This document shows, piece after piece, positions 11,876-50,306 of a DNA stretch of 64,000 nucleotides. The position numbers and the translations under genes are program-made. Location of the stretch: the UHGV virus genome UHGV-0144373; one strand, 5' to 3'. The notes under the pieces are model-generated. The model worked only from the letters and a program-made list of their open reading frames with translations, was not told the origin of the DNA and searched no databases. The stretch is from a virus. Position 1 is the stretch's first letter. Each line of letters opens with the position of its first letter.

Positions 11876-11888
11876 AGTTAATCACCTA

Positions 11889-12164: not shown

Positions 12165-12248
12165 ACCATAATACTTTCAAGGTGAGTGGGTACGCCATAA
12201 AAGCCTAATGCGAAGTTTTCAGAGTGAATAATGTTTTCACGTTTCATA

Positions 12249-12578: not shown

Positions 12579-12754
12579 TCAATGAATCTATGTTTGTAGC
12601 TCTAACCTTTTCACGTTCATCATTAAGATAATCATCAAGAGCCTTTTCAATCTGTGAATCATCTTGACAGATAACTGTAAAGACTGTAAAGCCGTCTGTA
12701 TCGTCAATTATCTTACCATAACCGCTTCTGGGATGTAACTTTTTAAGAGCCATA

Positions 12755-15914: not shown

Positions 15915-16440
15915 CCTTACCAGTACCAGTTACAAGTGTATCTTTCTTCAAACCTAGATTCTTAGAGGCTTGACCATACATCCAGTCAGTGATTGCTTTA
16001 ACCTCTTGAGTCATTGTCTCTGGGCATTCCCAACTATTTTCATCATGGTATGCCAGTAAGAGTCTAGCACCAATTGCTGGTTTTCGTCCATTTAATTTTG
16101 TCAACCCTTCTTCACATGCTCTTCTACAAGCGAGGTTAATTGCCTCGTTCTGAATCTGGCTTTCCGAACCCATGAGCAAATAATTCAATAACTTATGTGG
16201 AGATTTACACCACAACCAAGCTCCAGCAACCTTTACAAAACCCCCTTTAGAGATTGCAGCAGTTTTGCCAAACACCTCTTCAAGTGCCTTCTTAGTTGCT
16301 TTGTAGTCAGCTTCCAAGTCATCTAACAGCTTCTTAATCTTTGGCAAACGCACAAAGTAAGTCTGTTTAGTTAATGCACCCTCCTGAGTAGTGGCTGCCT
16401 TAATAGTTTTAGCAAACTTCTCATCACCTGCACCGAACAA
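15886..16440 (-). CDS. DNA polymerase (family A, T7 gp5-like), C-terminal segment
   Basis: Begins within motif B (LFGAGDEK; the ORF-track M is a TTG codon); contains SPHKLLNYLL, motif C LLAYHDE and the C-terminal WYEVH, all collinear with the T7 gp5 C-terminus. No Shine-Dalgarno upstream. Confidence 0.8.
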   Translation of the reverse strand: MFGAGDEKFAKTIKAATTQEGALTKQTYFVRLPKIKKLLDDLEADYKATKKALEEVFGKTAAISKGGFVKVAGAWLWCKSPHKLLNYLLMGSESQIQNEAINLACRRACEEGLTKLNGRKPAIGARLLLAYHDENSWECPETMTQEVKAITDWMYGQASKNLGLKKDTLVTGTGKVGKSWYEVH

Positions 16441-16449: not shown

Positions 16450-16757
16450 TCAATACACTCGCAAGGTGTACCAGTTCTCTTATGAACTTCTCCGCATTTC
16501 TACGGAGTGTCGGACTATATCACGTAGTAATAATACTACCGTTGCACTTGGGAATGGTCATTAGCTTACCACCCTACTCTACTCAGTTCATACATTAAGT
16601 ATGCTTTTCGATAGTCTCTGAACGTTTCTCTGTTAGGAACCTCTATAGTTATGTTATTTGCTTTAGGAGTCCTAACAGAGACTTCGCTGCTGATTACCAT
16701 ATCTTTACAGACTTAGGCTTCCAGCAATTCACAACGTTTTACATGCGCCACTGACGC
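16450..16757 (-). other. intervening sequence splitting the DNA polymerase gene (candidate group I intron)
   Basis: About 300 nt with stop codons in the polymerase frame, lying between KAKNGIY and LFGAGDEK of motif B. Exact boundaries unresolved. Confidence 0.4.
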
Positions 16758-18896: not shown

Positions 18897-19068
18897 TTTT
18901 ACTCCCTCTAAAATCATTAACCACATACATTACTGCAAAAAATTATAAAAAGCAAGTTGACAATGTACTTGACAAGGTGTTAATCTTTGCGAAGTGGGTT
19001 TTTACTTAAAAGGTTACTTAACAGTTTAACTATACAGATACTTTAAAACTCTTAAAAGATTATTTAAT

Positions 19069-32033: not shown

Positions 32034-32041
32034 AATGAAAT

Positions 32042-32062
32042 GGTCTCTTCGGAGACCTTTTT
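32042..32062 (+). terminator. intrinsic terminator
   Basis: GGTCTC-TTCG-GAGACC followed by TTTTT. Confidence 0.7.
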
Positions 32063-32081
32063 AGCATGTAAAGGGGCAATA

Positions 32082-34226
32082 ATGAACAAAGTACAGATTA
32101 TTAAAAAGAATGGCTCACTCGAAGAACCTGATATCAAAAAAGTTTTAGTAGCAGTCACAAAGTCAGCTAACAGAGTTGGTTATAAAGAGCTTCCACCAGA
32201 TGTTACTCAAGCTCTTGAGTCAGCATTTATGAGGATTCTGGTAAAGTCCACTAAACAGAATAATTTGCTAATTTCGGTAAATGATATTCACAGTATTGTT
32301 GAGGGTGCTTTGGCAGAAGTCAATCACGAAATCTATGAGTCTTACTCAACATATAGAAATTACCGTAAAGAAGTTGCTCAAAATTGGGATGAACTCTACC
32401 AGAAGACCAGAGATACACTCTTCTTAGGTGACAGAGAGAATGCTAACTTTGACAGCAGTTTAATTTCTACAAAAGGTTCAATTATTCGTGGTTATCTGAC
32501 TAAAGAAATCTTTAAACAGTACCATTTAACACCAGAGGAACTTGAAGCCATTGAAAAAGGGTTTATCTATATCCATGATTTAAGAGACCTAATTTTTGGT
32601 GGTATCAACTGTTGCCTGTTTGACATTGGTAAAGTCCTGAAAGGTGGCTTTGAAATGTCTGGCATCGAATATTGTGAACCGAAGTCTGTGCTGTCGGCCT
32701 TACAGGTTATTGGTGACGTAGTTCTTTCAGCAACTGCACAGCAATTTGGTGGTTTTACTTTAGCAGAGATTGATAAGGTACTTGTGCCGTATGCTAAGAA
32801 GTCTCTACGCTATCATGCTGAGAAAGCAGCATCTTATGGTATTCCTAAAGAACATTACCACAATTATGTCATGGAGCAGCTACAGCTTGAATTAACTCAG
32901 GGTTTCCAGTCACTCGAAATGAAACTAAATACTGTACCTTGTAGCCGTGGTGATTTTGCATTTACAACTTTGACATTTGGATTACTTGACTCAGATATGT
33001 CTAATGAAGACAACCGACTGCAATACATGATTGCAAACACCATTCTTGATGTTCGCATGAATGGACAAGGTAAGAGCAAGAAGCCTGTTGTATTCCCTAA
33101 ACTGGTTTATATTCATGACCAGAAGAGACACGATGAGGATATCTGTCAAGGCCAACTGTACAGCAAAGCTATTGAGTGTTGCTCTAAAGCGATGTATCCA
33201 GATTTCTTAAGTGTATCTGGTCATGGTGCTGTAGCAGAAGCTTTTGAGCGTTCTGGCAAGGTAATTTCACCGATGGGTTGCAGAGCTTTCTTATCCCCAT
33301 ATCTTAACGAGAATGGAGAAGAGTTCTACGTTGGTCGTGCTAATATTGGTGCTGTATCTTTGAACTTACCAATGATTTACCAGTATTCTAAAGAGAATGG
33401 TTTAGATTTCTGGAAAGAGCTTGATAAGTACCTAGAAATGATTCGTAGCTTCCATAAGAAACGTTACGAAATGATTGCCAATATGCCAGCAAGTTCTAAC
33501 CCTCTTGCATTCACACAAGGTGGTCTGTATAAAGGGACTAAGAAGCCTACTGACAAGGTTGGTTGGGATATTGTGAAGTCCTTCACAGCTTCTTTTGGGG
33601 TTACTGCTCTTGATGAGTTATCTGTTCTTGCTGAAGGTAAACGACTTCATGAAGTTGGAAGTTCTAGTTTTGCATACGATGTTCTGGCATACATTAACAT
33701 GAAAACTGAAGAGTTTAAGAATGAAGATGGCTTCCTGTATGCAGTATATGGCACTCCAGCAGAGTCATTGTGTGGAACTCAGCTAAAACAGTTCAGAGAT
33801 ATGTTTGGTGTTATTAAAGGCGTTTCTGACAAGGAATACTTTACAAACAGTTTCCATATGAATGTTGCAGCAAACATCTCACCATTTGAGAAGCAGGACT
33901 TAGAAGAGCCATTCTTCCATATCTGTAGAGGTGGCAGAATCCAGTATGTAAGGGTAGCTAACCCAGAAAACTTACCAGCACTTAAAAGTTGTATTACCAG
34001 AGGGATGTTGAAGGGTTTTTATCAGGGACTTAACTTTGACTTAGCAATCTGTGAACATTGTGGTAACAGACCAAAGGCTGATGTGGAAGAATGTGAGGTT
34101 TGTCATTCACACGATATCTCTGTGATTAACAGGGTGTGCGGGTACTTGTCATTCACAAAAATTAAAGGTCAGTCTCGAATGAATGACGCTAAGATGGCAG
34201 AAATTAAGGATAGAGTTTCTATGTAA
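32082..34226 (+). CDS. nrdD: anaerobic ribonucleotide reductase (class III)
   Basis: C-terminal glycyl-radical motif RVCGYLS and zinc site CEHCG ... CEVCH; start moved to 32082 (AGGGG upstream) because the ORF-track start at 32040 lies inside the terminator hairpin. Confidence 0.9.
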   Translation: MNKVQIIKKNGSLEEPDIKKVLVAVTKSANRVGYKELPPDVTQALESAFMRILVKSTKQNNLLISVNDIHSIVEGALAEVNHEIYESYSTYRNYRKEVAQNWDELYQKTRDTLFLGDRENANFDSSLISTKGSIIRGYLTKEIFKQYHLTPEELEAIEKGFIYIHDLRDLIFGGINCCLFDIGKVLKGGFEMSGIEYCEPKSVLSALQVIGDVVLSATAQQFGGFTLAEIDKVLVPYAKKSLRYHAEKAASYGIPKEHYHNYVMEQLQLELTQGFQSLEMKLNTVPCSRGDFAFTTLTFGLLDSDMSNEDNRLQYMIANTILDVRMNGQGKSKKPVVFPKLVYIHDQKRHDEDICQGQLYSKAIECCSKAMYPDFLSVSGHGAVAEAFERSGKVISPMGCRAFLSPYLNENGEEFYVGRANIGAVSLNLPMIYQYSKENGLDFWKELDKYLEMIRSFHKKRYEMIANMPASSNPLAFTQGGLYKGTKKPTDKVGWDIVKSFTASFGVTALDELSVLAEGKRLHEVGSSSFAYDVLAYINMKTEEFKNEDGFLYAVYGTPAESLCGTQLKQFRDMFGVIKGVSDKEYFTNSFHMNVAANISPFEKQDLEEPFFHICRGGRIQYVRVANPENLPALKSCITRGMLKGFYQGLNFDLAICEHCGNRPKADVEECEVCHSHDISVINRVCGYLSFTKIKGQSRMNDAKMAEIKDRVSM

Positions 34227-36715: not shown

Positions 36716-36728
36716 ACAGATACTATAA

Positions 36729-36752
36729 GGGAACTGTAAAGGTTCCCTTTTT
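36729..36752 (+). terminator. intrinsic terminator
   Basis: GGGAAC-TGTAAAG-GTTCCC followed by TTTTT. Confidence 0.7.
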
Positions 36753-36766: not shown

Positions 36767-37282
36767 ATGTATCTGTCAAACCTGAAACGTTCTGCTGCAA
36801 TGTCAGTGTTAAGACTCAGCTTTGAGGAACGTCAAGAGTTCATTGACTCCCACCAATACGACCCTTCCAACTCGAATCACATGATACTCTGGAATCGTGA
36901 GAGTACTCGTGAAAGAGCACTATTCCGCTATTACCCACACTACACTATAGATAACCTGTATGAATTGTTTGTTGTGAAGAACACCATTACAGTGCTCAAT
37001 CAACTTTGCAGATACACAGGTAGTCAATCCTTCACATTAGGCCACCACAAACCTGTTACAAAGGGTGGTGAGCATCACTGTGCAAACTGGTTTATCCAGA
37101 CTAAACTTGATAACCAGAAGCAGGGAGATAACCTTCTAAGCACACCTAAGATGACCTACGAAGAGCAAGAGAAATATATCAAAAATAATATGCCAGATGT
37201 GCTTGACAACAACTATACAGATTTGGCAATATCTCTCCTGTTGAAGTTCGAGACAGTTTATAGGGCAACTTACAATGGCTAA
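36767..37282 (+). CDS. putative HNH nuclease
   Basis: LGHHKPVTKGGEHHCANW ... NQKQGDN resembles an HNH His-Me finger. Confidence 0.45.
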   Translation: MYLSNLKRSAAMSVLRLSFEERQEFIDSHQYDPSNSNHMILWNRESTRERALFRYYPHYTIDNLYELFVVKNTITVLNQLCRYTGSQSFTLGHHKPVTKGGEHHCANWFIQTKLDNQKQGDNLLSTPKMTYEEQEKYIKNNMPDVLDNNYTDLAISLLLKFETVYRATYNG

Positions 37283-37562: not shown

Positions 37563-38018
37563 ATGATTTTTTGCAGCTTCCAAAAAAGAATTATTGAGAT
37601 TCTATACAATAAGTTTGGGACAGATAACACATTTGACTCAAATGAAGCTATTGAAGCCCTACAAGAAGGAAGTGATTATATCAAAAAACAGCCAATAGCA
37701 AACATCAGGTACTACTTGACTCAGATGAGAAAGTGGGGTGTGCTCATCGTGGTAGGACAGATTAAGCAACAAGGGAGGATGCTCATCAACCAATTAAACA
37801 GAGGTTTTATTGAGAAGCACATTCAGCTAGACTATTTACTTAAAGAGCCACGAAACCAACGTGAAGAGCAGCAAAAAGACTTAAGTGGTGGTGTAGGTGT
37901 GTCTCCAGACATAAAATTCTTTATTGGTGAGTTGATGTTTGATACACTCCAAGATGCTGTTGAACACTGCAAAAAGTATATTATCAAAGTAAAACGTGCA
38001 AAAATTATTTGGGAGTAA
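37563..38018 (+). CDS. tandem paralog family member 1 (type a)
   Basis: Shares N-terminal (I/L)LYNKFG(T/Y)(D/E)(N/K)TF and C-terminal (A/E)(V/I)EHCKK ... K(R/H)(A/R)K(I/V)IWE with the next three genes. Confidence 0.6.
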   Translation: MIFCSFQKRIIEILYNKFGTDNTFDSNEAIEALQEGSDYIKKQPIANIRYYLTQMRKWGVLIVVGQIKQQGRMLINQLNRGFIEKHIQLDYLLKEPRNQREEQQKDLSGGVGVSPDIKFFIGELMFDTLQDAVEHCKKYIIKVKRAKIIWE

Positions 38019-38022
38019 TAAC

Positions 38023-38418
38023 ATGTTTGAGCTTCTGAAGGTTCTGTATATAAATTTTGGCTATGATAAAACATTTTCTGGCTCACAACTAACTAAGGTT
38101 TTTAATAAATATCTACCACATGCTTCAATCAGGGATAAAGCTAATTGGTCTCACAGATTACGTAAAAGTGGGTATATTAGCGTTGTTGGGGCGACAGGCT
38201 TTAATAATGAGTATCTTATGAGAATCAATGAAAGCAAAGCTAAAAATGTGCTTTTAAATTGTAATGACTATCAACAAAAGGATGAAGAGGTCAGTGTAGG
38301 TGAAGTAGGGTACTTCATAGGTGACATACACTTTACCAGTATGGAGGCAGCAGTTGAGCATTGTAAGAGAACGGTTATCCAAACAAAAAGAAAGCGTATT
38401 GTTTGGGAAGAAGTTTAA
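38023..38418 (+). CDS. tandem paralog family member 2 (type b)
   Basis: Start set at the ATG at 38023 (GGGAG overlapping the upstream stop); the ORF-track start at 37996 is in-frame read-through. Same N- and C-terminal signatures. Confidence 0.6.
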   Translation: MFELLKVLYINFGYDKTFSGSQLTKVFNKYLPHASIRDKANWSHRLRKSGYISVVGATGFNNEYLMRINESKAKNVLLNCNDYQQKDEEVSVGEVGYFIGDIHFTSMEAAVEHCKRTVIQTKRKRIVWEEV

Positions 38419-38439
38419 ACATTTGATTAGGAATACACT

Positions 38440-38904
38440 ATGATTTTTTGCAATTTACAGAAGCACGTAATAGAGATTTTATACAAAACCTTCGGGACAG
38501 AAAACACTTTTGACTCTAACGAAGCAATTGACACATTAAGAGAGAATAGCCTTTTTATACGAGGCCAGTCAATCAGTAATACCCGTGGGTATCTGACAAT
38601 GTTAAGACAGTCTGGTGTACTGCTGACTGTAGGGCAGGTAAAAAGCAAAGGTAGACTAAGTATTAATCAATTAAATCGAGCCTTTATGGAGAAGCACATA
38701 CAACTGTCAAGGATGCTAGATAATACGTGTGAAGAGTTGGGGAGTCCACAAAAAGCGAGTTCATCTGATGTTAAAGATGTGGATGCACAACCTGACGTAA
38801 GATACTTTATTGCTGATGTTATGTTTAAAACACTCGATGAAGCTATTGAGCACTGCAAAAAGCATCTTATTAAAGTTAAACATGCAAAAGTTATTTGGGA
38901 GTGA
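38440..38904 (+). CDS. tandem paralog family member 3 (type a)
   Basis: Closest to member 1 (MIFCNLQKHVIEILYKTFGTENTFDSNEAI ... IEHCKKHLIKVKHAKVIWE). Confidence 0.6.
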   Translation: MIFCNLQKHVIEILYKTFGTENTFDSNEAIDTLRENSLFIRGQSISNTRGYLTMLRQSGVLLTVGQVKSKGRLSINQLNRAFMEKHIQLSRMLDNTCEELGSPQKASSSDVKDVDAQPDVRYFIADVMFKTLDEAIEHCKKHLIKVKHAKVIWE

Positions 38905-38908
38905 TGCT

Positions 38909-39289
38909 ATGATTGAACTGTTAAAAGTCCTATATAATAAGTTTGGTTATGATAAAACTTTTACTTGTTCACAGATACGTAGTATCCATGATAAGGAATT
39001 TCCAAATGTATCCAAGACAAACAAGTCAACTCGGTTCAATCGTCTTCGCCAGAGGGGTTACATTAAAATAGTTGGATACAAGAATAACTCTTTCGAGTAT
39101 GTAATGCAGATTAATAGAGAAGTGTCAAGTAAAATACTTGAAGAGCCAACAGCCGAAGAACAAAAGATACAAGACGGTGAAGTTCGCTTCTTTGTGGAGA
39201 AGGAAAGTTTTGGGTCAATAGATGAAGCTATCGAATATTGTAAAAAGAACATTATTCAGGTAAAGCGTAGAAAGGTTATTTGGGAATAA
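38909..39289 (+). CDS. tandem paralog family member 4 (type b)
   Basis: Start set at 38909; closest to member 2 (MIELLKVLYNKFGYDKTFT ... IEYCKKNIIQVKRRKVIWE). Confidence 0.6.
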   Translation: MIELLKVLYNKFGYDKTFTCSQIRSIHDKEFPNVSKTNKSTRFNRLRQRGYIKIVGYKNNSFEYVMQINREVSSKILEEPTAEEQKIQDGEVRFFVEKESFGSIDEAIEYCKKNIIQVKRRKVIWE

Positions 39290-39290
39290 A

Positions 39291-39306
39291 GAGAGAGAGA
39301 GAGAGA
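39291..39306. repeat. (GA)8 dinucleotide microsatellite at the prs ribosome-binding site
   Basis: gagagagagagagaga occupies the whole space between the stop of paralog 4 and the ATG at 39311. Confidence 0.9.
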
Positions 39307-39310
39307 AGCT

Positions 39311-40192
39311 ATGAAAACATCTATCCGTGTTACAGTTCATTCACCGACTAAAGGGACTCACGAAGAAGAGTTTAACATTATCCAATTCCCTTCTGGTGAG
39401 ATTGGTGGACACTTTTCACAAGAGCTTGTTGATTTTACTGCTTATGCAGCATCATCCATCAACAACGTGGTTATGATTGTAAAGGGTTATGACAAAGACA
39501 CATTGTTTGCTGTTGCACTTGCTAAAGAAGCAATTGATGATTTAGTTCCTCATGATTATGCTCTGAAGACTGTCATTTTTTACTACTTGCCAAATGCACG
39601 ATATGACCGTCACATGTTTAAAGGCGACGCAGCAGCTTTAAAGGTTTTTGCTAAACAGATTAATGCAATGGGGTTTGGCGCAGTCTGTGCAGTTGACCCT
39701 CACAGCTATGTACCAGATAACCTGTTTAACTGCTTCCAGAGTATCCCTCAAAAGGAAATTGCAGTCCACTATGCAAATGACCCTCTGATTGATTACTTAG
39801 TAGCTCCAGATGCAGGTGCTTCTAAGAAGATTGCAGAGACTGCTAAAGAGGTAGATAAACCATACATCACAATGTCTAAAGTACGCAACCTCAAGACTGG
39901 TGAAATCACTGGTATGCGAATCCTTGATGATGTTGATTTGACAGATAAAACTGTCATGATTCTGGATGATATTTGTGATGGAGGCCGAACCTTCATAGAA
40001 GCAGCTAAACACCTCCGTAAAGCAGGTGCAAAACGTGTGGAACTATATGTAACACATGGTATCTTCTCTAAAGGTGTTGAAAACTTACTTGACAATGGTA
40101 TTGACCATATCTACACTACAAACTCTTTAGGCGAAGCTAAAGACCGTGGCTTAACACATTACGGCCAAGTTACTGTAGCAACCATTGATTGA
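39311..40192 (+). CDS. prs: ribose-phosphate pyrophosphokinase-like protein (Prs family; possibly an ADPR pyrophosphokinase of a NAD+ reconstitution pathway)
   Basis: Type I PRT motif MILDDICDGGRT and overall Prs-like length (293 aa). Confidence 0.75.
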   Translation: MKTSIRVTVHSPTKGTHEEEFNIIQFPSGEIGGHFSQELVDFTAYAASSINNVVMIVKGYDKDTLFAVALAKEAIDDLVPHDYALKTVIFYYLPNARYDRHMFKGDAAALKVFAKQINAMGFGAVCAVDPHSYVPDNLFNCFQSIPQKEIAVHYANDPLIDYLVAPDAGASKKIAETAKEVDKPYITMSKVRNLKTGEITGMRILDDVDLTDKTVMILDDICDGGRTFIEAAKHLRKAGAKRVELYVTHGIFSKGVENLLDNGIDHIYTTNSLGEAKDRGLTHYGQVTVATID

Positions 40193-40201
40193 AACTTTAT
40201 A

Positions 40202-40223
40202 GGGGCTTAAAAGCCCCATTTTG
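40202..40223 (+). terminator. hairpin, possible weak terminator
   Basis: GGGGCTT-AAA-AGCCCC followed by ATTTT. Confidence 0.4.
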
Positions 40224-40237
40224 AGAGAGATTAAAAG

Positions 40238-42019
40238 ATGACTAAATCACTTTATGCAGTACCAGCAGGTCTTAATGCAGATGCTTACAAGGCATCACAT
40301 ATATATCAGTATCCAGATGCTACACAATATCTTATGTTGAACCTGACACCACGTAGTGATAAATGGTTTAACAGTCCTTTAGCAATTGACGGTGTAGTGG
40401 CTTTTGGTATTCAACGTTTTGTTAAAGATTACTTGATAGACCACTGGAATGCCACTTTCTTTGAACGTGATAAAAAAGAAGCAATTGACGAAATCTTAGA
40501 AGTCATGAATGGTGTTCTGGGTAAAGATGCTATCGGTCGAGAGCATTGGGAAGCACTTCACGACTTAGGCTATCTACCAGTTGAAGTATACGCTGTAGAA
40601 GAAGGTGCAGTTGTTCCTATGCGTGTCCCAATGATTGTCTTCCAGAACACTGTTTCAGGCTTCCATTGGGTAGCAGGGTATCTGGAAGATGCTTTCTCTG
40701 CTGAGATTTGGAAGGCTTGCACTATTGCAACTATTGCATTGCATTACAAACGCATCTGTAAGAAGTGGGCTGACCTTACTTGCGACAATGACTTACATTT
40801 ACCCTATCAGTGCCATGACTTTGCTATGCGTGGTATGTCCGGCTTTACTGATGACGCATTTAACGCTGTAGGTCACTTAACCAGCTTTAAAGGAACTGAT
40901 AGCTTCCCTGCTGTGTATACGGCTAAACGAATCTATGGACAGTCCTACCCAATCTCTGATATTGGTAGCTCTGTACCAGCCACTGAACACTCTGTGATGT
41001 GTGCAAACATTGCTTGGGAAGGTGGTAATGAATTGATTGAAGATGAAAGACGTTTTAAAGGTGAGTTACAAACCTTCCGTCGTTTCTTAACAGAAACTTA
41101 CCCAACTGGTATTGCAAGTATTGTTTCAGACACTTATAACTTCTGGAGAACTGTGTCAGAAATCTTACCAGCACTACGTAAAGAAATTATGGAACGTGAC
41201 GGTAAACTGGTAATTCGCCCTGACTCTGGAGACCCTGTACATATTGTCACAGGTTATAAAGCAATCCACTTAGAGTGTGCTAAAAAGGCTTATTATGAGC
41301 ACCTAAGCAAGCTGGAAGCCAGTGACACAATGCTGAATGCTGTTCTGAACATGAAGCTTGAAAACATCAGCTATGGTATTGCTGGATGGCTACTGTCAGA
41401 AGGATACGAAATGGTTGTTGATAGAGAAGACTTTGAAGTTGCTGATACAGTGATGTTGAAAAATGCTTATATGGTTGGTTCTGCAAACGTTATAACACGT
41501 CCTGTGGCTGAGATTGATGGAGCTATTAAGACACTGTACAACATCTTTGGAGGAACTATTAACTCTAAAGGGTTTAAGGTACTGGATGAGCATATCGGTC
41601 TTATCTATGGTGACTCTATCACACTGGAACGTGCAAACGAAATCCTGAAGCGTCTGTATGAAATGGGTTTTGCAAGCTCTAACGTAGTATTTGGTGTAGG
41701 CTCTTACACTTACCAGTACATGACTCGTGACACCTTTGCATTTGCTGTCAAAGCAACTCTTGCAAGCATTGGTGGTAAAGAGATTATGCTTGCAAAAGAC
41801 CCTAAAACAGATAGTGGTGTTAAGAAATCTGCTTTTGGCGGTGTAGCACCTATGTGGGATGGTGATAAGTTGAAAGCTGTAGATGGCTATGGATTCCAGA
41901 GCTTTGCAGATGCACTTGAACATCCAGCTTGTGCTTTACGTTTAGTCTTTAGTGACTCTGAGCAGTACGGTTACACATCTCTTGGTGATATTCGAAATAA
42001 TATTGACAAGCAGCTTTAA
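40238..42019 (+). CDS. nadV: nicotinamide phosphoribosyltransferase-like protein (Nampt/NadV family)
   Basis: GTDSFPA ... SVPATEHS matches the conserved Nampt GTD(T/S) ... S(V/I)PA(A/T)EHS region; 593 aa. Confidence 0.8.
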   Translation: MTKSLYAVPAGLNADAYKASHIYQYPDATQYLMLNLTPRSDKWFNSPLAIDGVVAFGIQRFVKDYLIDHWNATFFERDKKEAIDEILEVMNGVLGKDAIGREHWEALHDLGYLPVEVYAVEEGAVVPMRVPMIVFQNTVSGFHWVAGYLEDAFSAEIWKACTIATIALHYKRICKKWADLTCDNDLHLPYQCHDFAMRGMSGFTDDAFNAVGHLTSFKGTDSFPAVYTAKRIYGQSYPISDIGSSVPATEHSVMCANIAWEGGNELIEDERRFKGELQTFRRFLTETYPTGIASIVSDTYNFWRTVSEILPALRKEIMERDGKLVIRPDSGDPVHIVTGYKAIHLECAKKAYYEHLSKLEASDTMLNAVLNMKLENISYGIAGWLLSEGYEMVVDREDFEVADTVMLKNAYMVGSANVITRPVAEIDGAIKTLYNIFGGTINSKGFKVLDEHIGLIYGDSITLERANEILKRLYEMGFASSNVVFGVGSYTYQYMTRDTFAFAVKATLASIGGKEIMLAKDPKTDSGVKKSAFGGVAPMWDGDKLKAVDGYGFQSFADALEHPACALRLVFSDSEQYGYTSLGDIRNNIDKQL

Positions 42020-42032
42020 AAGTATATGATAA

Positions 42033-42055
42033 GAGGCTCCTACGGGAGCCTTTTT
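42033..42055 (+). terminator. intrinsic terminator
   Basis: GAGGCTCC-TACG-GGAGCC followed by TTTTT. Confidence 0.7.
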
Positions 42056-42072
42056 AATTTCTGGAGAAAACT

Positions 42073-42408
42073 ATGAAAATCAAAGAGATGAATATCAACA
42101 TTGTCCTAGAAGAACGTTGGGAGAATATTAAGAAATCTGAAGATGGTAAAAAGTTCCTTAACAAAATTTTAGTAGCAGCTAAAGAAGAACTAACAGGTAA
42201 GGTTGCAGCAGCAATCACAATAAAGGTTTGTGTAAAAGGTCTCCCAGACAATCACCAATTTGCACTTGACGAGTTTAAAGAAGGCTTCTACAATCCAAAC
42301 AAACAGATGATTGAAAGTAACTTTGCAGTATCTACAAGTATCGTCCATGACAGAAGCTTTATCCTTTACAAAAATATGAGAGGTGAGTCATGCAAGCATA
42401 TTGGATAG
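42073..42408 (+). CDS. hypothetical protein
   Basis: 111 aa. Confidence 0.4.
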   Translation: MKIKEMNINIVLEERWENIKKSEDGKKFLNKILVAAKEELTGKVAAAITIKVCVKGLPDNHQFALDEFKEGFYNPNKQMIESNFAVSTSIVHDRSFILYKNMRGESCKHIG

Positions 42409-42594: not shown

Positions 42595-44961
42595 ATGCGC
42601 ATGGTAAACGACCACGCAGAAGTGCTTAAGAGTTCAACTTCTTTGGAGACATCTCAAGCACAGATTACAATGACACCTGAAATGTTCAGCCTTTTGAGTT
42701 CTGGTGTATACACATTTAAAGAGCGAGCAGTGATTCGTGAACTGTCATGTAATGCAGTGGATGCTCAGAAAGAAGCTGGAAAAGAGAACATCCCGTTCCA
42801 TGTGCATTTACCTACTCGATTTGAGCCTTACTTTGAAGTCCGTGACTTTGGAACTGGATTGACTCATGATAAAGTTATGAGTTTGTACCTAAACTACGGA
42901 GCTTCTACGAAGAATGACTCTAATGATTACATTGGTGCAATGGGTATCGGCTCAAAATCTCCATTTGCAATTGCTCAGTCATTCACAGTATCTAGCTATG
43001 TTGACGGTGTTGTTAATAAGTACTCTGTTTACCTTGAGAATGGTATCCCTCAAGTAACTAAGCTTACTACTAACCAAACAAATGAACCTAATGGTTTAGC
43101 TGTACGTGTGGCAGTTGCTGACCACCGTATTTCAAAGTTCTTTGAAGAGGCTGGTCACGTATACTCATACTTTGCTGTAAAACCAGAAAGTAACATTGTA
43201 TATGATGACGTGTTAGCAGATATGAACGTCATTGCCCGTGAAGAAGGTGTTTATGATGCTATGATTCATAAGCAAAGCTGGCGTTCTAGTGGCAACAGGA
43301 CAGATTTTAATGTGGTAATGGGTAATATTGCCTACCCAGTTAATATGGAAGCATTACTTGGCGATGATTTCTTCAAAGTCTTGCCAGAATTTTTCCGTAG
43401 GAGCGTAGACCTTGTAAACATTTACATGCCTATTGGTTCAGTGGCTATTGCAGCTTCTCGTGAAGCATTGCAGATGAATGATACGACAAAAAATGTTATT
43501 ATCGAGGCCACCAAAAAGATAACTGGAGCAATTACAAAGGATGTTATCAAGAAAGTTAATAGTCAACCTACACTCATGGATGCTGCACAGGCTTATGCTG
43601 AGTTACGTTTGAACTCACGAGAGATGTTTAATGCTGTGTGTCCAAAGCTGGAGTGGGGTGGTGTTAAGCTTGATTCTCTGGAAGAAGAATTACTAAACAT
43701 TCGTCGTGGGATTATCTACGCAGAAGACGGCTCAGTCATTTATGAACGTGACGGCAAAGGTAATATTAAGGTTGATAGGAACGGGAACAATATCCCTAAA
43801 GTAGATTATCTTTATAATCCAGTTGCTTATGTCAAGTTCAACTCTTTAGAGAGTAAGATTCGTGCAACAGCACTTTCCTACACTCAAGAGGCAAGTATGT
43901 TCAATATCTTTGGTGCAATGCGTAAAAGCCAAATTGAACAGTTTTTGTTCGTGATTAATGACCGTCGCAATAAAAATGGCACTGAGAAGACTGTAGGCCG
44001 CAATCAGATTCTGCGTGGTGCATGTCGAGATTACGCCAATGAGTCAAGTCTGTTTCACAGATACAATGGTATTGTGTTTGTATTCTCGACTGAAAAAGAG
44101 TTAGATGATTTAATCAACCTGCATAAACTTGATAAAAGCTTGTTAAAGATTGTGAAAATGTCTGATAAGGAACACCATTACCAGCGTAAAGAAGCTGTCA
44201 GGGGTGTTGTAAAACTCTGGAAAGCTGTTCCAGCAGAAGGTGTAGCCTCATACACAGAGGTGTCAGAAGACTTTGATACAATTGAAGAACCTCAGCTTTA
44301 CATTAAGGCAGTTGGTGATACAGTTGATGGCGAATGTTTTTGCTCATCTCCAGAAGATGTAGCTAAGTCAGTTGCTAATGTTACAGGGAAGACAGTCTAT
44401 GTTTTCCGAAAAGCAAATTGGAAAAAGATACCAGAAGACTGGATTGAAGTAGATGAGAAGCTCTTGAACGACAGTTTAACTGATGTTCACTGGATTAATC
44501 ATAACAGGTATATGACACGCATCTGTATGCGTGGTGTCCTTAACCTTACAAGCTGTTGGATTATTACCAGAAACTTTACGTTCAATAACAGGAAGATTTC
44601 TGATGGTTATTGCTATTCACGGGACACAAACAAAACTATCTTCCTAGAAGGTAATGAAGATGCTGTTGAGGCAATGTTCGGTAAAATCCAATACGTTGCT
44701 GCACAATTTGCATACACTTACACTATTAGTGTGTTGCAAGATTTGAAAAGGTGTCTTGACAATGATACAAAGCTTTATAAGAAAATTAAGAAAGCTGGTG
44801 ACCGTATGTTTATTAAGGTGACAAACTACTTCTCAAAAAGAAAACAAGAAAACTTCTTGCTTTCTCATTTAGATTGGAATAAAGTGTCACCCATTGAAGT
44901 GAGTAAGTTCTTGGGCTTTGATGTGAAGTGTGTTCCAGAAGGGACTACAATTTACGATTAA
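42595..44961 (+). CDS. rIIA: rIIA-like protein (GHKL ATPase fold)
   Basis: N-terminal GHKL boxes (ELSCNAVDA, VRDFGTGL, GAMGIGSKS), 788 aa, immediately upstream of an rIIB-like gene. Confidence 0.65.
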   Translation: MRMVNDHAEVLKSSTSLETSQAQITMTPEMFSLLSSGVYTFKERAVIRELSCNAVDAQKEAGKENIPFHVHLPTRFEPYFEVRDFGTGLTHDKVMSLYLNYGASTKNDSNDYIGAMGIGSKSPFAIAQSFTVSSYVDGVVNKYSVYLENGIPQVTKLTTNQTNEPNGLAVRVAVADHRISKFFEEAGHVYSYFAVKPESNIVYDDVLADMNVIAREEGVYDAMIHKQSWRSSGNRTDFNVVMGNIAYPVNMEALLGDDFFKVLPEFFRRSVDLVNIYMPIGSVAIAASREALQMNDTTKNVIIEATKKITGAITKDVIKKVNSQPTLMDAAQAYAELRLNSREMFNAVCPKLEWGGVKLDSLEEELLNIRRGIIYAEDGSVIYERDGKGNIKVDRNGNNIPKVDYLYNPVAYVKFNSLESKIRATALSYTQEASMFNIFGAMRKSQIEQFLFVINDRRNKNGTEKTVGRNQILRGACRDYANESSLFHRYNGIVFVFSTEKELDDLINLHKLDKSLLKIVKMSDKEHHYQRKEAVRGVVKLWKAVPAEGVASYTEVSEDFDTIEEPQLYIKAVGDTVDGECFCSSPEDVAKSVANVTGKTVYVFRKANWKKIPEDWIEVDEKLLNDSLTDVHWINHNRYMTRICMRGVLNLTSCWIITRNFTFNNRKISDGYCYSRDTNKTIFLEGNEDAVEAMFGKIQYVAAQFAYTYTISVLQDLKRCLDNDTKLYKKIKKAGDRMFIKVTNYFSKRKQENFLLSHLDWNKVSPIEVSKFLGFDVKCVPEGTTIYD

Positions 44962-45040: not shown

Positions 45041-46150
45041 ATGACTACTAAAACTAAAGCACAGATTGACGCAGAAATTTACAAACTGGTTAAAGAAGGT
45101 AAGCTTACTAAAACAGCTATTGCACAGAAGTTCAATACTTCAACCCGTTCAGTTGGTCGTGCTGTAGAGCGTCATGAAGCAACCTTAAAAGGTAAGAAAA
45201 AGGTAGCTTCTAAACCAGCTACGAAGACTTTGAAGCAAGTTGCTAAGTCAGTTAAAAAGAAAGCTGGAAAACCAGTTGAAAAGGTTGTTAAAGAGGTTGT
45301 ACAAAAGGCTCCGGTAAATAAACTACACGAAGCTATGCAGAATGGCAACCAGATTGAGTACATGATTACTGGTGACTCTGTTATCATGACTTTCGGTGCA
45401 GATTCTGAAATAGTTGAATCTACCCATCCGAACTACAAAGAAATCGTGATGGCTGTTGTATCCGGTGAGTTTAAGAAAGCCTTTGAACTGATGAACATTC
45501 GTAAGTCTATCGAAAACTTCACTCAGGGTGCTATCACAATCAAGGGTGACAAACTATTCTACGGTGCTGTTGAGATGCGTTCTACTCTGGTTGACCGTAT
45601 TCTTCACATGATGAAGACTGGAGATAAAGGTTTTGAACGCCTTGTAATGTTCTTTGAAAAACTGATGGAAAACCCATCTAAAGATTCTGTAGAACAACTT
45701 TGGGGCTTCGTATCCCACCTTGATGTTGAAATTGATGAAGAAGGTTACATCATTGGTTGGAAGAAAGTCTCTACTCGTGAAGGTAAGCTGGTTGACTCCC
45801 ACACCTACAGAGTACCTAATGATTTAGGTAACATTGTAGAAATGCCACGTTGGATGGTTGATAATAACCGTAACGTGACTTGCTCACAAGGTCTTCACGT
45901 TGGTGCTTGGGATTATGTTCGTTGCTTCTCAGGTGATACAATTCTGAAGGTTCGTGTCCATCCACGAGATGTTGTATCTGTTCCAACTGATTACAACGAT
46001 ATGAAGATGCGTTCATCACGTTATGAAGTTGCAGCAATCGTTGACAATCAACGTAAAGTGCTGAAAGCATGGGATGGCAAGACTGAAGCTTTGCATGTCA
46101 TCGTTGGTACTGCTGGCGAACTTATTTCTCAGCGTAAACGTGAAATCTAA
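45041..46150 (+). CDS. rIIB: rIIB-like protein
   Basis: C-terminal segment LKVRVHPRDVVSVPTDYNDMKMRSSRYEV closely resembles the conserved C-terminus of T4 rIIB as recalled from memory; position after rIIA. Confidence 0.7.
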   Translation: MTTKTKAQIDAEIYKLVKEGKLTKTAIAQKFNTSTRSVGRAVERHEATLKGKKKVASKPATKTLKQVAKSVKKKAGKPVEKVVKEVVQKAPVNKLHEAMQNGNQIEYMITGDSVIMTFGADSEIVESTHPNYKEIVMAVVSGEFKKAFELMNIRKSIENFTQGAITIKGDKLFYGAVEMRSTLVDRILHMMKTGDKGFERLVMFFEKLMENPSKDSVEQLWGFVSHLDVEIDEEGYIIGWKKVSTREGKLVDSHTYRVPNDLGNIVEMPRWMVDNNRNVTCSQGLHVGAWDYVRCFSGDTILKVRVHPRDVVSVPTDYNDMKMRSSRYEVAAIVDNQRKVLKAWDGKTEALHVIVGTAGELISQRKREI

Positions 46151-47482: not shown

Positions 47483-47947
47483 ATGAACAATATCATTACG
47501 GTAGCACTTGACGTTACGGCAAACAAATCTGAAGTAGTTCGTAACATTATCAAGAGCAACTTTGAGGGTAAAATCTTCCGTGCTGTCAACGTAAAAGCAG
47601 ACGGTAACATCCGAGAGTATCGTGCTCTTTTGAATGTTAAGAAACACGTAAAAGGTTCTGGCTCAACGACAGCACATAAAGAAAATCTGATGACTATCTA
47701 TGATATGGGTATGGCTTCAGAATTAGGTGCTGAAGGTATCGTTAAAGAAGGTGCTCCGTATCGCTCTTTCAATCTGGAAACTACTCTCATGCTTTCCTTT
47801 ACAAGTGGTTCTAAAACAACTACTTATCTCTTTACTGATGCTGCAACGGTATCTGCTATCAAGGATAGCACTGTCAAAGCTGGGGTAGCTGCTGCTGCAA
47901 AAGCTTCTTCGATGGCTGCAAATGTCCTTGCTAAAGTCCTCGGTTAA
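47483..47947 (+). CDS. hypothetical protein
   Basis: 154 aa with an Ala-rich C-terminus, followed by a strong terminator. Confidence 0.45.
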   Translation: MNNIITVALDVTANKSEVVRNIIKSNFEGKIFRAVNVKADGNIREYRALLNVKKHVKGSGSTTAHKENLMTIYDMGMASELGAEGIVKEGAPYRSFNLETTLMLSFTSGSKTTTYLFTDAATVSAIKDSTVKAGVAAAAKASSMAANVLAKVLG

Positions 47948-47958
47948 GGTTAAGATAC

Positions 47959-47980
47959 AGGCTCCTTCGGGAGCCTTTTT
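47959..47980 (+). terminator. intrinsic terminator
   Basis: AGGCTCC-TTCG-GGAGCC followed by TTTTT. Confidence 0.75.
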
Positions 47981-47999
47981 CATTTTAGGAGATTGTTAA

Positions 48000-48347
48000 A
48001 TGACATTTAAAGAGTTCTGTCAAGCTACCTTCATAATTGTTTTCTTAGTTGGGGCAGGTGTCTGGGGAGGATACTCTTACAGAGACTATCAAGTTGCTGA
48101 AGCTGAGCTAAACAATCAAAAGCTCATAAGTGTTGCTAAAGATGCTTATCAGGAAGGTTTAGTCACACTGAGCACCAATTACAAAAATGATTTGAAAGAT
48201 GTGCTTGCTAAGAATAAGCATACAAAAGAGGTACTAACATATGAAAAAACTAAGCCAGAGTTTTATAATGTTTGTGTTACTGATAACTATGTCAGGGTGT
48301 TCAACGAACAAAGTGAACAGTACATTCAAAAACTCCCAAGTAAGTGA
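48000..48347 (+). CDS. putative i-spanin (Rz-like)
   Basis: N-terminal TM helix (ATFIIVFLVGAGVWGGY) followed by a coiled-coil-like periplasmic domain; overlaps the next ORF in another frame. Confidence 0.35.
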   Translation: MTFKEFCQATFIIVFLVGAGVWGGYSYRDYQVAEAELNNQKLISVAKDAYQEGLVTLSTNYKNDLKDVLAKNKHTKEVLTYEKTKPEFYNVCVTDNYVRVFNEQSEQYIQKLPSK

Positions 48348-48510
48348 GAGTGACAAGTACACTCAAGAAGAATCAAGATTCACTGTCAAAGGTAATACTG
48401 GCAGCGATGTGGCAGCAGCCCTTGAGTTCTATCGTGATGGATTTTACCAGTGCACAATCAAAGCTAATAACCTTATTGATATGATTTTATTAGGAAACAA
48501 ACAGCAATGA
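48241..48510 (+). CDS. putative o-spanin (Rz1-like lipoprotein)
   Basis: Signal peptide plus lipobox-like LLITMSGC; overlaps the 3' part of the preceding gene out of frame, the classic Rz/Rz1 arrangement. Confidence 0.35.
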   Translation: MKKLSQSFIMFVLLITMSGCSTNKVNSTFKNSQVSESDKYTQEESRFTVKGNTGSDVAAALEFYRDGFYQCTIKANNLIDMILLGNKQQ

Positions 48511-48776
48511 CAGAGAATGAAGATACTTTTTACATAGAAGGGTACTTACTGTTGCCACGACCAAAAGAAACTTATATGCGAATTGATTTCTCACCAACCA
48601 TTATGGATAATGTGATGTGCCATATCTTTATGCAAGGTGTCACAGCACAGCTTAAGTATGTTGGTAAAGAGTGCAAAATAAAGGTTGACACTCATCCAGA
48701 AATCAAAGAGAATCACTACACATGGTTCTTACCAGACTCTAAAGAAATCTTAGCAGTTCTTAAAACGAGGAAGTAG
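48507..48776 (+). CDS. hypothetical protein
   Basis: 89 aa. Confidence 0.4.
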   Translation: MTENEDTFYIEGYLLLPRPKETYMRIDFSPTIMDNVMCHIFMQGVTAQLKYVGKECKIKVDTHPEIKENHYTWFLPDSKEILAVLKTRK

Positions 48777-49520: not shown

Positions 49521-50306
49521 ATGGGTATTGTAAAAATAATCAATGGTGATATCTTTGCCGCATTTGATAAAGGTAAGTTTGACATCATCGGTCACGGTTG
49601 CAACTGTATGAATTTAATGGGTGCAGGTATTGCAGCAACTATTTCTAAGCGTTATCCAAAAGTGTATGATACTGACACAGAAGTTTACCTGTTTGCAGGC
49701 GGCATCCGTCACAAACCCTGTGAAAATTTACTGGGTAATTTCTCCGTAGCACGTTTAAAACAAGGCCGTATAGCTAACCTTTACACCCAACTTCATACTG
49801 GTAAAGATGCCCGATACAGTGCTTTAGAGTCATCTTTGAAACAGCTTAACAGATACTGTGAAGTTAACCAGTTGAAGAAAGTTGGTCTACCTATGATTGG
49901 TGCAGGTATTGGTGGACTCGACCCTCAAGCCGCCACAGTTATCATTAATCAGGTGATGAAAAGTGTAGATGTTTATCTGTATGTCTACGAAGGAGAGATG
50001 TACCACAAGTTACTCTCAGGTTGGAAGAACTACTGTGAACCAGAATACTTTGCAGGTGTAGTAACGTTCACAGATAATACAGTTACCCTCTTCAGACGAA
50101 GAAAAGGTAAGATACATCAAAGTAACCCTCCGGTTGAAAAGATGTCTCTAAGTAACGCTCTAGTTACCCACCTGTCGAAGAGCAATCACAGAATTGCTGT
50201 GACATTTGGTAGTGATGCCGATGCTTACATTTATGCAAGAACTGATGAGGATATCGAGGCAATCTTCTCTTCACCAGAAGTTACCTTCTTAGACGCAAAG
50301 AACTAA
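49521..50306 (+). CDS. macro-domain (ADP-ribose binding/processing) protein with C-terminal extension
   Basis: VKIINGDIF ... DIIGHGCNCMNLMGAGIAATI and VGLPMIGAGIGGLDPQAA align in pattern with YmdB/MacroD (GDIT ... IVNAAN ... GGGGVDGAIH and FPAISTGVYGYP). Confidence 0.6.
   Translation: MGIVKIINGDIFAAFDKGKFDIIGHGCNCMNLMGAGIAATISKRYPKVYDTDTEVYLFAGGIRHKPCENLLGNFSVARLKQGRIANLYTQLHTGKDARYSALESSLKQLNRYCEVNQLKKVGLPMIGAGIGGLDPQAATVIINQVMKSVDVYLYVYEGEMYHKLLSGWKNYCEPEYFAGVVTFTDNTVTLFRRRKGKIHQSNPPVEKMSLSNALVTHLSKSNHRIAVTFGSDADAYIYARTDEDIEAIFSSPEVTFLDAKN

Follow-up and report, generated by a model that had tools for sequence, protein, structure and literature searches.

Very probable re-identification of the NARP1 operon in a Felixounavirus genome from the sequence of its adps and namat genes

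The stretch of DNA analysed here (the window, 64,000 nucleotides of UHGV virus genome UHGV-0144373) contains two adjacent + strand genes separated by a gap of 45 nt. According to the ORF listing, the first gene, adps (39311-40192), encodes a PRPP-synthetase-like protein of 293 aa and the second, namat (40238-42019), a Nampt-like protein of 593 aa. The sequence VMILDDICDGGRTF is located within adps, and the sequences FKGTDSFPAV and SSVPATEHSV within namat. The product of the first ORF matches the Pfam families Pribosyltran (1.3e-11) and Pribosyl_synth (6.9e-9) and PHROG 619, annotated as 'ribose-phosphate pyrophosphokinase' (2e-97), and that of the second ORF matches NAPRTase (5.6e-35), NAMPT_N (9.4e-6) and PHROG 448 (1.8e-201). 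Judged by these profile matches, both family assignments are far beyond chance. The description in the initial annotation of a Prs-like gene directly followed by a Nampt-like gene thus holds, with both ORFs found at these positions and Pfam and PHROG in agreement.

The window belongs to a Felixounavirus and is colinear with positions 14102-78778 of Escherichia phage JohannRWettstein (Bas63), at 86-96% nucleotide identity. When the 2.7-kb pair is used as query, 259 phage records match, almost all of them Felix O1-like, with identities of up to 96%. The two genes are orthologous to Bas63 genes 79-80 (bas63_0079 and bas63_0080; MZ501086), in which NARP1 was discovered (bioRxiv 10.1101/2024.02.11.579819). 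The Bas63 genes are 882 and 1782 nt long and separated by a 45-nt spacer, gene lengths and spacer being the same in the window. In both phages, which are of the same genus, the pair follows nrdG and the gp77/gp78 homologues and precedes rIIA/rIIB, and the nrdA/B/D/G nucleotide-metabolism block lies directly upstream of it. Window Adps is 78% identical to Bas63_0079, at equal length and without gaps, and window Namat is 97% identical to Bas63_0080, also at equal length. The neighbourhoods differ in two respects: between the gp78 homologue and adps the window has four paralogous ORFs, spanning 1.8 kb, which Bas63 lacks, and Bas63 gene 81 is absent from the window. The two-gene order of the window is also that of the SpbetaL1 and ICP1 NARP1 operons.

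In the mechanism proposed for this pair, a host NADase defence of the SIR2, TIR or SEFIR type (e.g., Sir2-HerA/Nezha, Thoeris type I or DSR1/2) would cleave NAD+ into ADP-ribose and nicotinamide. Adps (39311-40192) would then use ATP to pyrophosphorylate ADP-ribose at its 1'' position, yielding ADPR-PP, and in the reaction of Namat (40238-42019) nicotinamide would displace the pyrophosphate of ADPR-PP to give NAD+ directly. NAD+ would in this way be rebuilt with neither an NMN intermediate nor an adenylyltransferase. What is known of the two reactions comes from the enzymes of SpbetaL1 and ICP1, and what is known of the anti-defence phenotype from Bas63. ICP1 Adps converts ADPR and ATP to ADPR-PP and makes no PRPP (PMC13586617), and the SpbetaL1 homologues, once purified, accepted ADPR but not ribose-5-phosphate and favoured ADPR-PP (bioRxiv 10.1101/2024.02.11.579819). 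Deletion of Bas63 genes 79-80 produced ~20-fold fewer plaques on SIR2-HerA, wild-type Bas63 restored NAD+ partly, ADPR-PP (m/z 720.010) occurred only when defence system and operon were present together, and protection was independent of host PncC and NadR (bioRxiv 10.1101/2024.02.11.579819). In the PhageMaP study, phages deleted for g79 or g80 plated 1e4- to 1e6-fold less well on Sir2-HerA, a defect that complementation rescued (bioRxiv 10.1101/2024.10.10.617714). Sensitivity to Sir2-HerA upon deletion of the Bas63 NARP1 genes has therefore been described in two independent studies (bioRxiv 10.1101/2024.02.11.579819; 10.1101/2024.10.10.617714). By analogy, the window allele would be expected to act like its Bas63 orthologues.

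Residues that define Adps were taken from the work on the ICP1 enzyme (PMC13586617) and located in the window protein through an alignment of five sequences that included the ICP1 gene from GenBank. Window Adps shares 96% identity with wV8 gp136 and 33% with the structurally characterised ICP1 Adps. In this alignment, window residues F26, R97, D99, R100 and H131 correspond to ICP1 F18, R87, D89, R90 and H121; D167, K190 and R192 to D161, K185 and R187; and D219, D220, I221, C222 and D223 to D212, D213, I214, C215 and D216. The catalytic beta-hairpin lysine (ICP1 K185) is thus conserved as K190, and the acceptor-site residues are conserved except for the adenine contact F92, where window Adps has Met, with a Phe at the +1 position. 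The PP loop, which in Adps is remodelled to form the donor site for ATP and is conserved, reads C222-DGGRTF in the window protein, CDGAASF in ICP1, SDGGASF in Dax and IDTGGTL in E. coli Prs; at the level of sequence the window loop keeps the Phe cap (ICP1 F221) as well as the Cys/Asp/Gly core, and has Glu in place of ICP1 F223. E. coli Prs is ~20-25% identical to window Adps, as judged by eye from the five-sequence alignment, and most of its C-terminal regulatory segment is missing from the window protein, which has a shortened C-terminus. Every NCBIfam equivalog cut-off for Prs was failed (best score 103.9 bits vs a cut-off of 296), and the broad subfamily model TIGR01251 was passed with 118.9 bits (cut-off 113). 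A PDB search returned archaeal Prs 4twb as best match, with Prs matches from 7e-18; the ICP1 Adps structures (PMC13586617) were not among the PDB matches of window Adps. By its sequence, window Adps groups with phage Adps and away from cellular Prs, and this placement is not in doubt because the Bas63 proteins, to which the window proteins are 78% and 97% identical, define the clade. Identity to Bas63 Adps is unevenly distributed, being 97% over residues 181-293 and 67% over the N-terminal 180 residues, and the first 500 nt of the gene show 59-77% nucleotide identity. The Bas63 allele for which function was tested therefore differs from that of the window in the domain with the regulatory flexible loop. 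The N-terminal allele of the window is shared with wV8 and vB_Si_35FD, and is found in ~155 records besides wV8.

Namat can be told from Nampt by an adenine clamp, for which the consensus GSx-Phi-x-Phi-x-Phi-TRD has been defined (PMC12774641). The SCH motif of the window protein, G488-SYTYQYMTRD-498 (GSYTYQYMTRD), fits this consensus; its third Phi position is Met, Asn or Val being more usual, and Bas63 is identical there. The stacking residue of the selectivity-clamp loop (SCL) is expected to be either Arg, or Lys or Tyr with an aromatic residue directly after it, and the window protein has K42-W43 (TPRSDK42-W43F), exactly as Bas63. This segment aligns with TPRTSR40VE of SpbetaL1, the SCL of which uses Arg where that of the window uses Lys-Trp. 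SpbetaL1 Namat is 48% identical to window Namat, and its SCH is GSFTYQYNTRD. In contrast, the NARP2-type Nampt of phage nt-1, a relative of KVP40, with 30% identity to window Namat, has GGGLLQQLDRD at the SCH site and no aromatic clamp. The catalytic His (H251) and the Arg and Asp of the RPDSG motif (R327 and D329) do not vary between the window protein and its aligned counterparts from SpbetaL1, Dax, ICP1 and nt-1. Among solved structures in the PDB, SpbetaL1 Namat (9w5w/9w5x) ranks first with 5e-128, well ahead of Xanthomonas Nampt (9e-52) and human Nampt (~1e-41). On sequence criteria, the Namat-specific adenine clamp is present in the second ORF. Felixounavirus Namat further contains insertions of ~85 aa (aa 343-426) and ~15 aa (aa 265-280), which are absent in SpbetaL1 and ICP1; in Dax Namat, the first of these sites holds a shorter insertion, and Bas63 Namat carries both insertions and the K-W clamp loop, as does the window protein.

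An NMN adenylyltransferase was sought in several ways. Pfam scans of 60 window ORFs of at least 110 aa produced no cytidylyltransferase-like or NMNAT family among the matches listed, which for the first ORF set reach E ~2e-5, and a Pfam rescan at E <= 0.1 of the ten first-set ORFs without obvious function yielded neither family. E. coli NadD, E. coli NadR, a KVP40-group NadR-like protein and a T5-like phage NMNAT were used as phmmer --max and tblastn queries against the six-frame ORFs of the window and of the complete 87.1-kb Bas63 genome, with nothing better than E = 0.36. The remark in the initial annotation that the window has no recognisable Nmnat gene is therefore borne out by both kinds of search, which extend it to the complete Bas63 genome. 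Two other pathways were ruled out on these grounds: NARP2, which combines a PRPP-preferring Nampt with an Nmnat, as no Nmnat was found and the Namat clamp is present; and NARP3, which consists of a PnuC-like nicotinamide riboside transporter and a NadR-like bifunctional enzyme (PMC13464706), as no match to E. coli NadR or the T5-like phage NMNAT was obtained. In NARP2 of Vibrio phage KVP40 (NadV Nampt and NatV Nmnat/Nudix) a Nampt-family enzyme restores NAD+, as is proposed here. However, NARP2 needs an Nmnat, uses PRPP and has no Adps, whereas in the window no Nmnat was found and Adps is present.

Bas63 orthology, the Namat clamp, the Adps residues and the outcome of the Nmnat search all back the NARP1 reading that the initial annotation had put forward, and the two genes are very probably the NARP1 pair, adps and namat, already described from Felix O1-like phages. 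The same annotation had held that sequence inspection alone could not tell true Prs and Nampt from their ADPR-utilising variants; computational comparison of the clamp motif, the Adps residues and the orthology to Bas63 does separate them. How well this particular case is already known was underestimated in that annotation. The locus is a re-identification of the known NARP1 operon in the genus of its discovery, and an ordinary member of it. Because the described NARP1 pathway is this very operon of this very phage genus, the identification is correct and does not constitute a new lead.

Several other readings of the pair were considered. In classical salvage, the first ORF would be a true PRPP synthetase and the second a true Nampt that make NMN from ribose-5-phosphate, ATP and nicotinamide, and the host (NadR, or PncC with NadD and NadE) would complete NAD+. 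The Pfam and NCBIfam names fit such a pathway (TIGR01251 just over its cut-off; NF006629 with 470 vs a cut-off of 405), and nearly all GenBank records among the matches listed annotate the pair accordingly. The cellular pair of Prs and Nampt (human or Xanthomonas), which salvages NMN, shares folds and catalytic chemistry with the window pair, and automatic naming as Prs and Nampt/NAPRTase follows from this; the substrates differ, as published for orthologues of the window pair. Namat enzymes also keep some synthesis of NMN from nicotinamide and PRPP in vitro (PMC12774641), which leaves room for a minor classical activity. As the main function, classical salvage is nevertheless very improbable. 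Protection of Bas63 did not depend on host pncC or nadR and ADPR-PP built up in vivo (bioRxiv 10.1101/2024.02.11.579819), and the purified Prs-like homologue of SpbetaL1, which stood in for the poorly purifying Bas63 protein, gave no product in a PRPP-synthetase assay (bioRxiv 10.1101/2024.02.11.579819). Moreover, the Namat, nearly identical to the Bas63 enzyme, has the adenine clamp that is missing from NARP2-type Nampt, and the first ORF fails all equivalog-level Prs models and is without most of the E. coli Prs C-terminal regulatory segment. A pair in dual use, acting as NARP1 when ADP-ribose is abundant and supplying NMN or PRPP in ordinary infection, would explain why its neighbours include the genes for nrd, thymidylate synthase and dNMP kinase. 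The position directly downstream of the nrdA/B/D/G block and the residual in vitro activity of Namat (PMC12774641) are in line with this, as is the finding that the Bas63 genes also partly counter retron Ec86 and hhe, neither of them a classical NADase (bioRxiv 10.1101/2024.10.10.617714). Dual use is still improbable, given that SpbetaL1 Adps formed no product in the PRPP-synthetase assay (bioRxiv 10.1101/2024.02.11.579819), that NARP1 reportedly builds NAD+ only once the depleting system is activated (10.64898/2026.01.28.702374) and that the PhageMaP phenotypes of g79 and g80 are described, in the passages considered, only on defence-expressing hosts (bioRxiv 10.1101/2024.10.10.617714).

The window leaves out about a quarter of the genome, and some NARP1 phages, e.g., ICP1, have a NadR-like gene elsewhere, so a NARP2-like or NARP3-like pathway with its adenylyltransferase in the ~22 kb outside the window was also weighed. 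The corresponding parts of Bas63 (1-14101 and 78779-87100) hold the terminase-to-tape-measure module, a few hypothetical ORFs and a tRNA cluster, the six-frame search of the complete Bas63 genome with the four queries gave its best value at E = 0.36, and no PnuC/NadR-like pair was found. The chance that such a pathway operates is next to nil, and this reading can be regarded as largely refuted already.

In NARP1-AP (Adps-Adpp-Namat) of Vibrio phage Gary, compared here through its relative Dax (MT459144 gp175-177), a Macro-domain ADPR-1''-phosphate phosphatase (Adpp) is by definition encoded within two genes of NARP1. The Adps and Namat of Dax are homologous to the window proteins. No Macro gene lies within two genes of the window pair, the flanking ORFs belonging to PHROG families of unknown function. 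The sole Macro gene found (49521-50306, + strand), a candidate accessory gene, is located 7.5 kb downstream of namat and encodes a 261-aa protein that matches Pfam Macro (7.7e-8) over aa 25-141 and PHROG 335, 'phosphatase' (5e-112). The best PHROG of the Dax Macro protein is also 335 (3e-50), and the two proteins share 30% identity (E 1e-16) and the ADPR-binding motifs HxCNC..MGxGIA and GLPxIGxG. Unlike the Dax gene, which is part of an Adps-Macro-Namat operon, the window gene stands outside the operon, ~13 genes downstream, and its product has an extra C-terminal extension of ~100 aa; the C-terminal 104 aa gave no Pfam and no PDB match. These similarities suggest that the Macro gene may be linked to NARP1. 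It is conceivable, but on balance doubtful, that Felix O1-like phages run a dispersed NARP1-AP in which the conserved Macro protein would turn ADPR-1''-phosphate or other modified ADP-ribose into ADP-ribose for Adps and Namat. In that case the phages could withstand NAD+ cleavage of the RES type (aRES) as well, and the published figure of 15% of NARP1 phages with a phosphatase, which counts genes within two genes, would be too low.

Signals for expression of the pair were examined through consensus scans and inspection of the spacers. The 21-nt spacer before adps (39290-39310, + strand), TAAAGAGAGAGAGAGAGAGAAGCT, which precedes the ATG, contains a (GA)n purine run that is likely to be its ribosome-binding site. 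In the adps-namat spacer, a small G+C-rich hairpin (GGGGCT-TAAA-AGCCCC, then ATTTT; 40202-40222, + strand) was read from the sequence. Its T-run is under the threshold of the terminator scan, and the hairpin may act as an attenuator or RNA-stability element. The genomes of ASO1A and of Felix O1-type phages carry a gene for an HNH endonuclease in this spacer. A terminator-like hairpin (42031-42054, + strand), with a 10-bp stem that includes 5 G-C pairs and with a T-run, begins 12 nt past the namat stop, and a matching hairpin (36727-36749) would mark the upstream end of the putative transcription unit. On the basis of consensus scans only, adps and namat would be co-transcribed as the last genes of a unit that these two hairpins delimit. 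A promoter-like sequence, TTGACA-16-TATGAT (11/12 matches), overlaps 42003-42030, and phage ASO1A has an annotated promoter at the equivalent site. Over the whole region, neither promoter-like sites (22 vs 17.6 +/- 4.1 in shuffled sequence) nor terminator-like sites (4 vs 4.1) were above expectation.

NARP1 is a significant recent discovery, in which viruses rebuild a metabolite destroyed by host immunity. The window locus adds no new principle, since operon and phage genus are those of the discovery. It is a clean case of systematic misannotation, as Prs and Nampt/NAPRTase, in NCBIfam models and in nearly all GenBank records among the matches listed, and one in which the published clamp motif tells Namat from Nampt by sequence. 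The variable neighbourhood is of interest for the arms race over NAD+, with its unlinked Macro phosphatase and winged-helix paralogue array, the two Adps N-terminal alleles and, in relatives, an HNH gene that has invaded the spacer.

Some further features of the region were observed. A RyR-domain (RyDEP-like) identity of the ORFs adjoining NARP1 was rejected, as no such Pfam match was obtained. The DNA polymerase gene is split by a group I intron. The four paralogues, of the winged-helix type, form an insertion immediately before adps (37563-39289); in two Ounavirinae genera this family, which had no match in IMG/VR, is always placed next to adps on its upstream side. The predicted structure of one of them (mean pLDDT 70.8) gave only a generic winged-helix match in Foldseek (E ~1e-2). 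In a weaker variant of the interpretation, the four paralogues might regulate the NARP1 operon or act as an accessory to it.

The pair of genes at 39311-40192 and 40238-42019 had been read in the initial annotation as a possible NARP1 pathway, in which a PRPP-synthetase-like enzyme (Adps) makes ADPR-pyrophosphate (ADPR-PP) from ADP-ribose and a Nampt-like enzyme (Namat) joins it to nicotinamide to rebuild NAD+. This reading is supported by orthology to a characterised operon, by specificity residues in both enzymes and by the lack of an adenylyltransferase match. Both plus-strand ORFs are present at these coordinates (293 and 593 aa, separated by a 45-nt spacer), they contain the quoted peptide strings, and the families proposed for them are confirmed: in Pfam, the adps product hits Pribosyltran (1.3e-11) and Pribosyl_synth (6.9e-9), and the namat product hits NAPRTase (5.6e-35) and NAMPT_N; their PHROG families are, respectively, 619 'ribose-phosphate pyrophosphokinase' (2e-97) and 448 'nicotinamide phosphoribosyl transferase' (1.8e-201). 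The gene-pair observation is thus real and far beyond chance.

A megablast search with the 2.7-kb pair gave 259 matches among phage records, nearly all to Felix O1-like phages (hosts Escherichia, Salmonella, Shigella and Citrobacter), with identity up to 96%. By local blastn, Escherichia phage JohannRWettstein (Bas63; MZ501086, Felixounavirus) matches the entire window colinearly over its positions 14102-78778 (86-96% identity), and by this colinearity the part of the genome outside the window is the counterpart of the tRNA cluster and of the module from terminase to tape measure. The Bas63 genes bas63_0079 and bas63_0080 match the two window ORFs exactly in length and are likewise 45 nt apart, and their proteins align without gaps (78% identity for Adps, 97% for Namat). 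Judged by sequence comparison, the window pair is therefore orthologous to the operon in which NARP1 was discovered. The system itself has been described before, from this same genus. Its discovery started from Bas63 genes 79-80, whose removal caused a ~20-fold plaque loss on SIR2-HerA; wild-type Bas63 partly preserved NAD+, the new metabolite ADPR-PP appeared only when defence system and operon were both present, host pncC and nadR were not needed for protection, and purified homologues from SpbetaL1 added pyrophosphate to ADP-ribose and coupled ADPR-PP with nicotinamide (bioRxiv 10.1101/2024.02.11.579819). In an independent Bas63 knock-out screen, removal of g79 or g80 cut plating on Sir2-HerA 1e4- to 1e6-fold and was complemented (bioRxiv 10.1101/2024.10.10.617714).

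Inspection of the sequence alone had been judged unable to tell a true Prs/Nampt pair from the ADPR-using variants; sequence-level tests on both enzymes do separate them. In Namat, an adenine 'selectivity clamp' has been defined that consists of a helix with the motif GSx-Phi-x-Phi-x-Phi-TRD, in which the x positions are aromatic, and a loop that has, at its third position, either Arg or Lys/Tyr with a stacking residue after it (PMC12774641). The window protein has the helix G488-SYTYQYMTRD-498 and the loop K42-W43, and the helix aligns with GSFTYQYNTRD in SpbetaL1, GSFTYQYVTRD in Vibrio phage Dax and GSYTYQYVTCD in ICP1, whereas nt-1, a KVP40-like phage, has a NARP2-type Nampt that reads GGGLLQQLDRD at this site. 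The catalytic residues H251 and R327/D329 are kept, and among solved structures SpbetaL1 Namat (9w5w, 9w5x) is matched at 5e-128, compared with 9e-52 for Xanthomonas Nampt and ~1e-41 for mammalian Nampt. Felixounavirus Namat also carries two inserts, one of ~85 aa that separates the RPDSGDP strand from the next helix (aa 343-426; 41264-41515) and one of ~15 aa after the catalytic His motif (aa 265-280; 41030-41077). SpbetaL1 and ICP1 Namat lack both, and Dax Namat has a shorter insert at the first site; in the Namat structure paper the word 'insert' occurs once, in the cloning methods (PMC12774641).

In Adps, the residues named for the ICP1 enzyme are F18, R87, F92, H121, D161, K185, D212, D213, I214 and D216 (PMC13586617), and all are kept in the alignment except F92, which aligns with Met and is followed one position later by Phe. 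The PP loop is similar, not identical, to that of ICP1, and the C-terminus is shorter than that of E. coli Prs. Against the NCBIfam Prs models the protein passes only the broad subfamily model and falls far below every equivalog model. The gene is mosaic (39311-39850, plus strand): over the first 500 nt, identity is 59-77% to Bas63 and ~95% to phages wV8 and vB_Si_35FD, whereas the remainder of the pair shares 90-98% with each of the three, and protein identity to Bas63 rises from 67% over residues 1-180 to 97% over residues 181-293. A tblastn search suggests that two alleles of the adps N-terminal domain circulate in the genus: ~155 records share at least 90% identity with the window and ~94 share 60-80%. 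The in vivo evidence from Bas63 comes from the other allele; this difference hardly weakens the assignment, because enzymes only 33% identical to the window Adps catalyse the same reaction.

The absence of an Nmnat-like gene from the window, claimed earlier from inspection, was borne out: Pfam scans of 60 window ORFs of at least 110 aa listed no NMNAT-type family among their matches, and phmmer --max and tblastn searches of the six-frame ORFs of the window and of complete Bas63 gave no match better than E = 0.36 with E. coli NadD, E. coli NadR, a T5-like phage NMNAT or a NadR-like protein of the KVP40 group. NARP2 (Nampt with Nmnat) and NARP3 (PnuC with a NadR-like protein; PMC13464706) are therefore excluded. 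The NARP1 carrier ICP1 (MW794143) encodes elsewhere in its genome a NadR-like protein with 36% identity to E. coli NadR, so some phages may combine NAD+ pathways; nothing comparable was found by homology searches in the window or complete Bas63. Nearly all GenBank records among the annotations listed name the pair ribose-phosphate pyrophosphokinase and nicotinamide/nicotinate phosphoribosyltransferase, and NCBIfam TIGR01251 and NF006629 exceed their cut-offs for it; automatic annotation thus still misnames Adps and Namat in public records.

A (GA)n purine run lies just 5' of the adps start codon on the plus strand, and the adps-namat spacer (40193-40237) contains GGGGCT-TAAA-AGCCCC, a small G+C hairpin with ATTTT after it. 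As a strong terminator-like hairpin follows namat (42031-42054) and a similar one lies at 36727-36749, the pair may end a transcription unit starting with the Bas63 gp77 homologue, although these signals are consensus matches only and their overall number in the region does not exceed the shuffled expectation. ASO1A and Felix O1-type genomes carry a 492-nt HNH endonuclease gene inside the spacer (L096 1191-1682), so the operon can accommodate a mobile gene between adps and namat. Bas63 gene 81 (345 nt, hypothetical), located between namat and gene 82, is missing from the window, where just 54 nt (42019-42073), with a promoter-like site and a terminator-like hairpin, part namat from the gene 82 homologue.

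NARP1 is flanked on the plus strand by homologues of Bas63 gp77 (36767-37282), rIIA (42595-44961) and rIIB (45041-46150). In Bas63, gp77 is reported to counter retron Ec67 and rIIA/B to counter QatABCD (bioRxiv 10.1101/2024.10.10.617714), and the region is a block rich in counter-defence genes proven in that phage. Directly upstream of adps, between it and the gp78 homologue, four tandem paralogous plus-strand ORFs are inserted in an A-B-A'-B' pattern (37563-39289; 135-154 aa), all belonging to PHROG 29478, a family of unknown function. The block was found in only 11 Felixounavirus records and is absent from Bas63, wV8 and vB_Si_35FD; Mooglevirus phages have a two-copy version in the same position (Henu11 gp29-30). 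In an AF2 model of a paralogue, the N-terminal winged helix is predicted with confidence, the small C-terminal domain is of low confidence, and nothing more specific emerges.

Further downstream, a plus-strand gene (49521-50306) encodes a Macro-domain 'phosphatase' of 261 aa (Pfam Macro 7.7e-8), homologous to the 'putative phosphatase' Bas63_0095 and with an extra C-terminal ~100 aa without Pfam or PDB match. RES-type defence yields ADPR-1''-phosphate, which NARP1 cannot use, and 15% of NARP1 operons hold a Macro phosphatase, Adpp, that restores ADPR, by a search that reached no further than two genes from the operon (Osterman et al. 2026, bioRxiv 10.64898/2026.01.28.702374). The window protein and the operon-borne Macro protein of Dax (Adps-Macro-Namat) share PHROG 335 as best match (5e-112 and 3e-50, respectively), 30% identity (E 1e-16) and ADPR-binding motifs. 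In IMG/VR, all Ounavirinae loci with enough flank have the Macro gene downstream of namat, at a distance of 7.5-7.8 kb. Of 53 distant Macro homologues (32-44% identity), 12 lie within 10 kb of an Adps and/or Namat/Nampt homologue and another two have a NadR-like gene nearby, about eight independent cases after removal of duplicates. Compared with the reported prevalence of NARP1 (~4%) and NARP2 (~1%) in phages (10.64898/2026.01.28.702374), this enrichment is suggestive, and the protein may feed NARP1 as an enzyme encoded outside the operon. Because such neighbours are missing from most of the homologues, members of the family are also common among T4-like phages and the domain also resembles DarG and TARG1-type glycohydrolases, this link is a hypothesis, not a result.

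The window and Bas63 also differ in their introns. Bas63 nrdD is annotated as a two-piece join with an internal homing endonuclease, and this insertion (Bas63 47827-48569) has no counterpart in the window, where nrdD (32040-34226, plus strand) is continuous, including at ~33279. Conversely, a minus-strand group I intron (16490-16765; Rfam RF00028, full-length model, 63.3 bits, E 1e-13) divides the family-A DNA polymerase gene of the window into ORFs 16713-18926 and 15886-16440, followed by a homing-endonuclease ORF with HNH_3 and AP2 domains (15348-15914), whereas the Bas63 polymerase gene is uninterrupted and lacks this intron.
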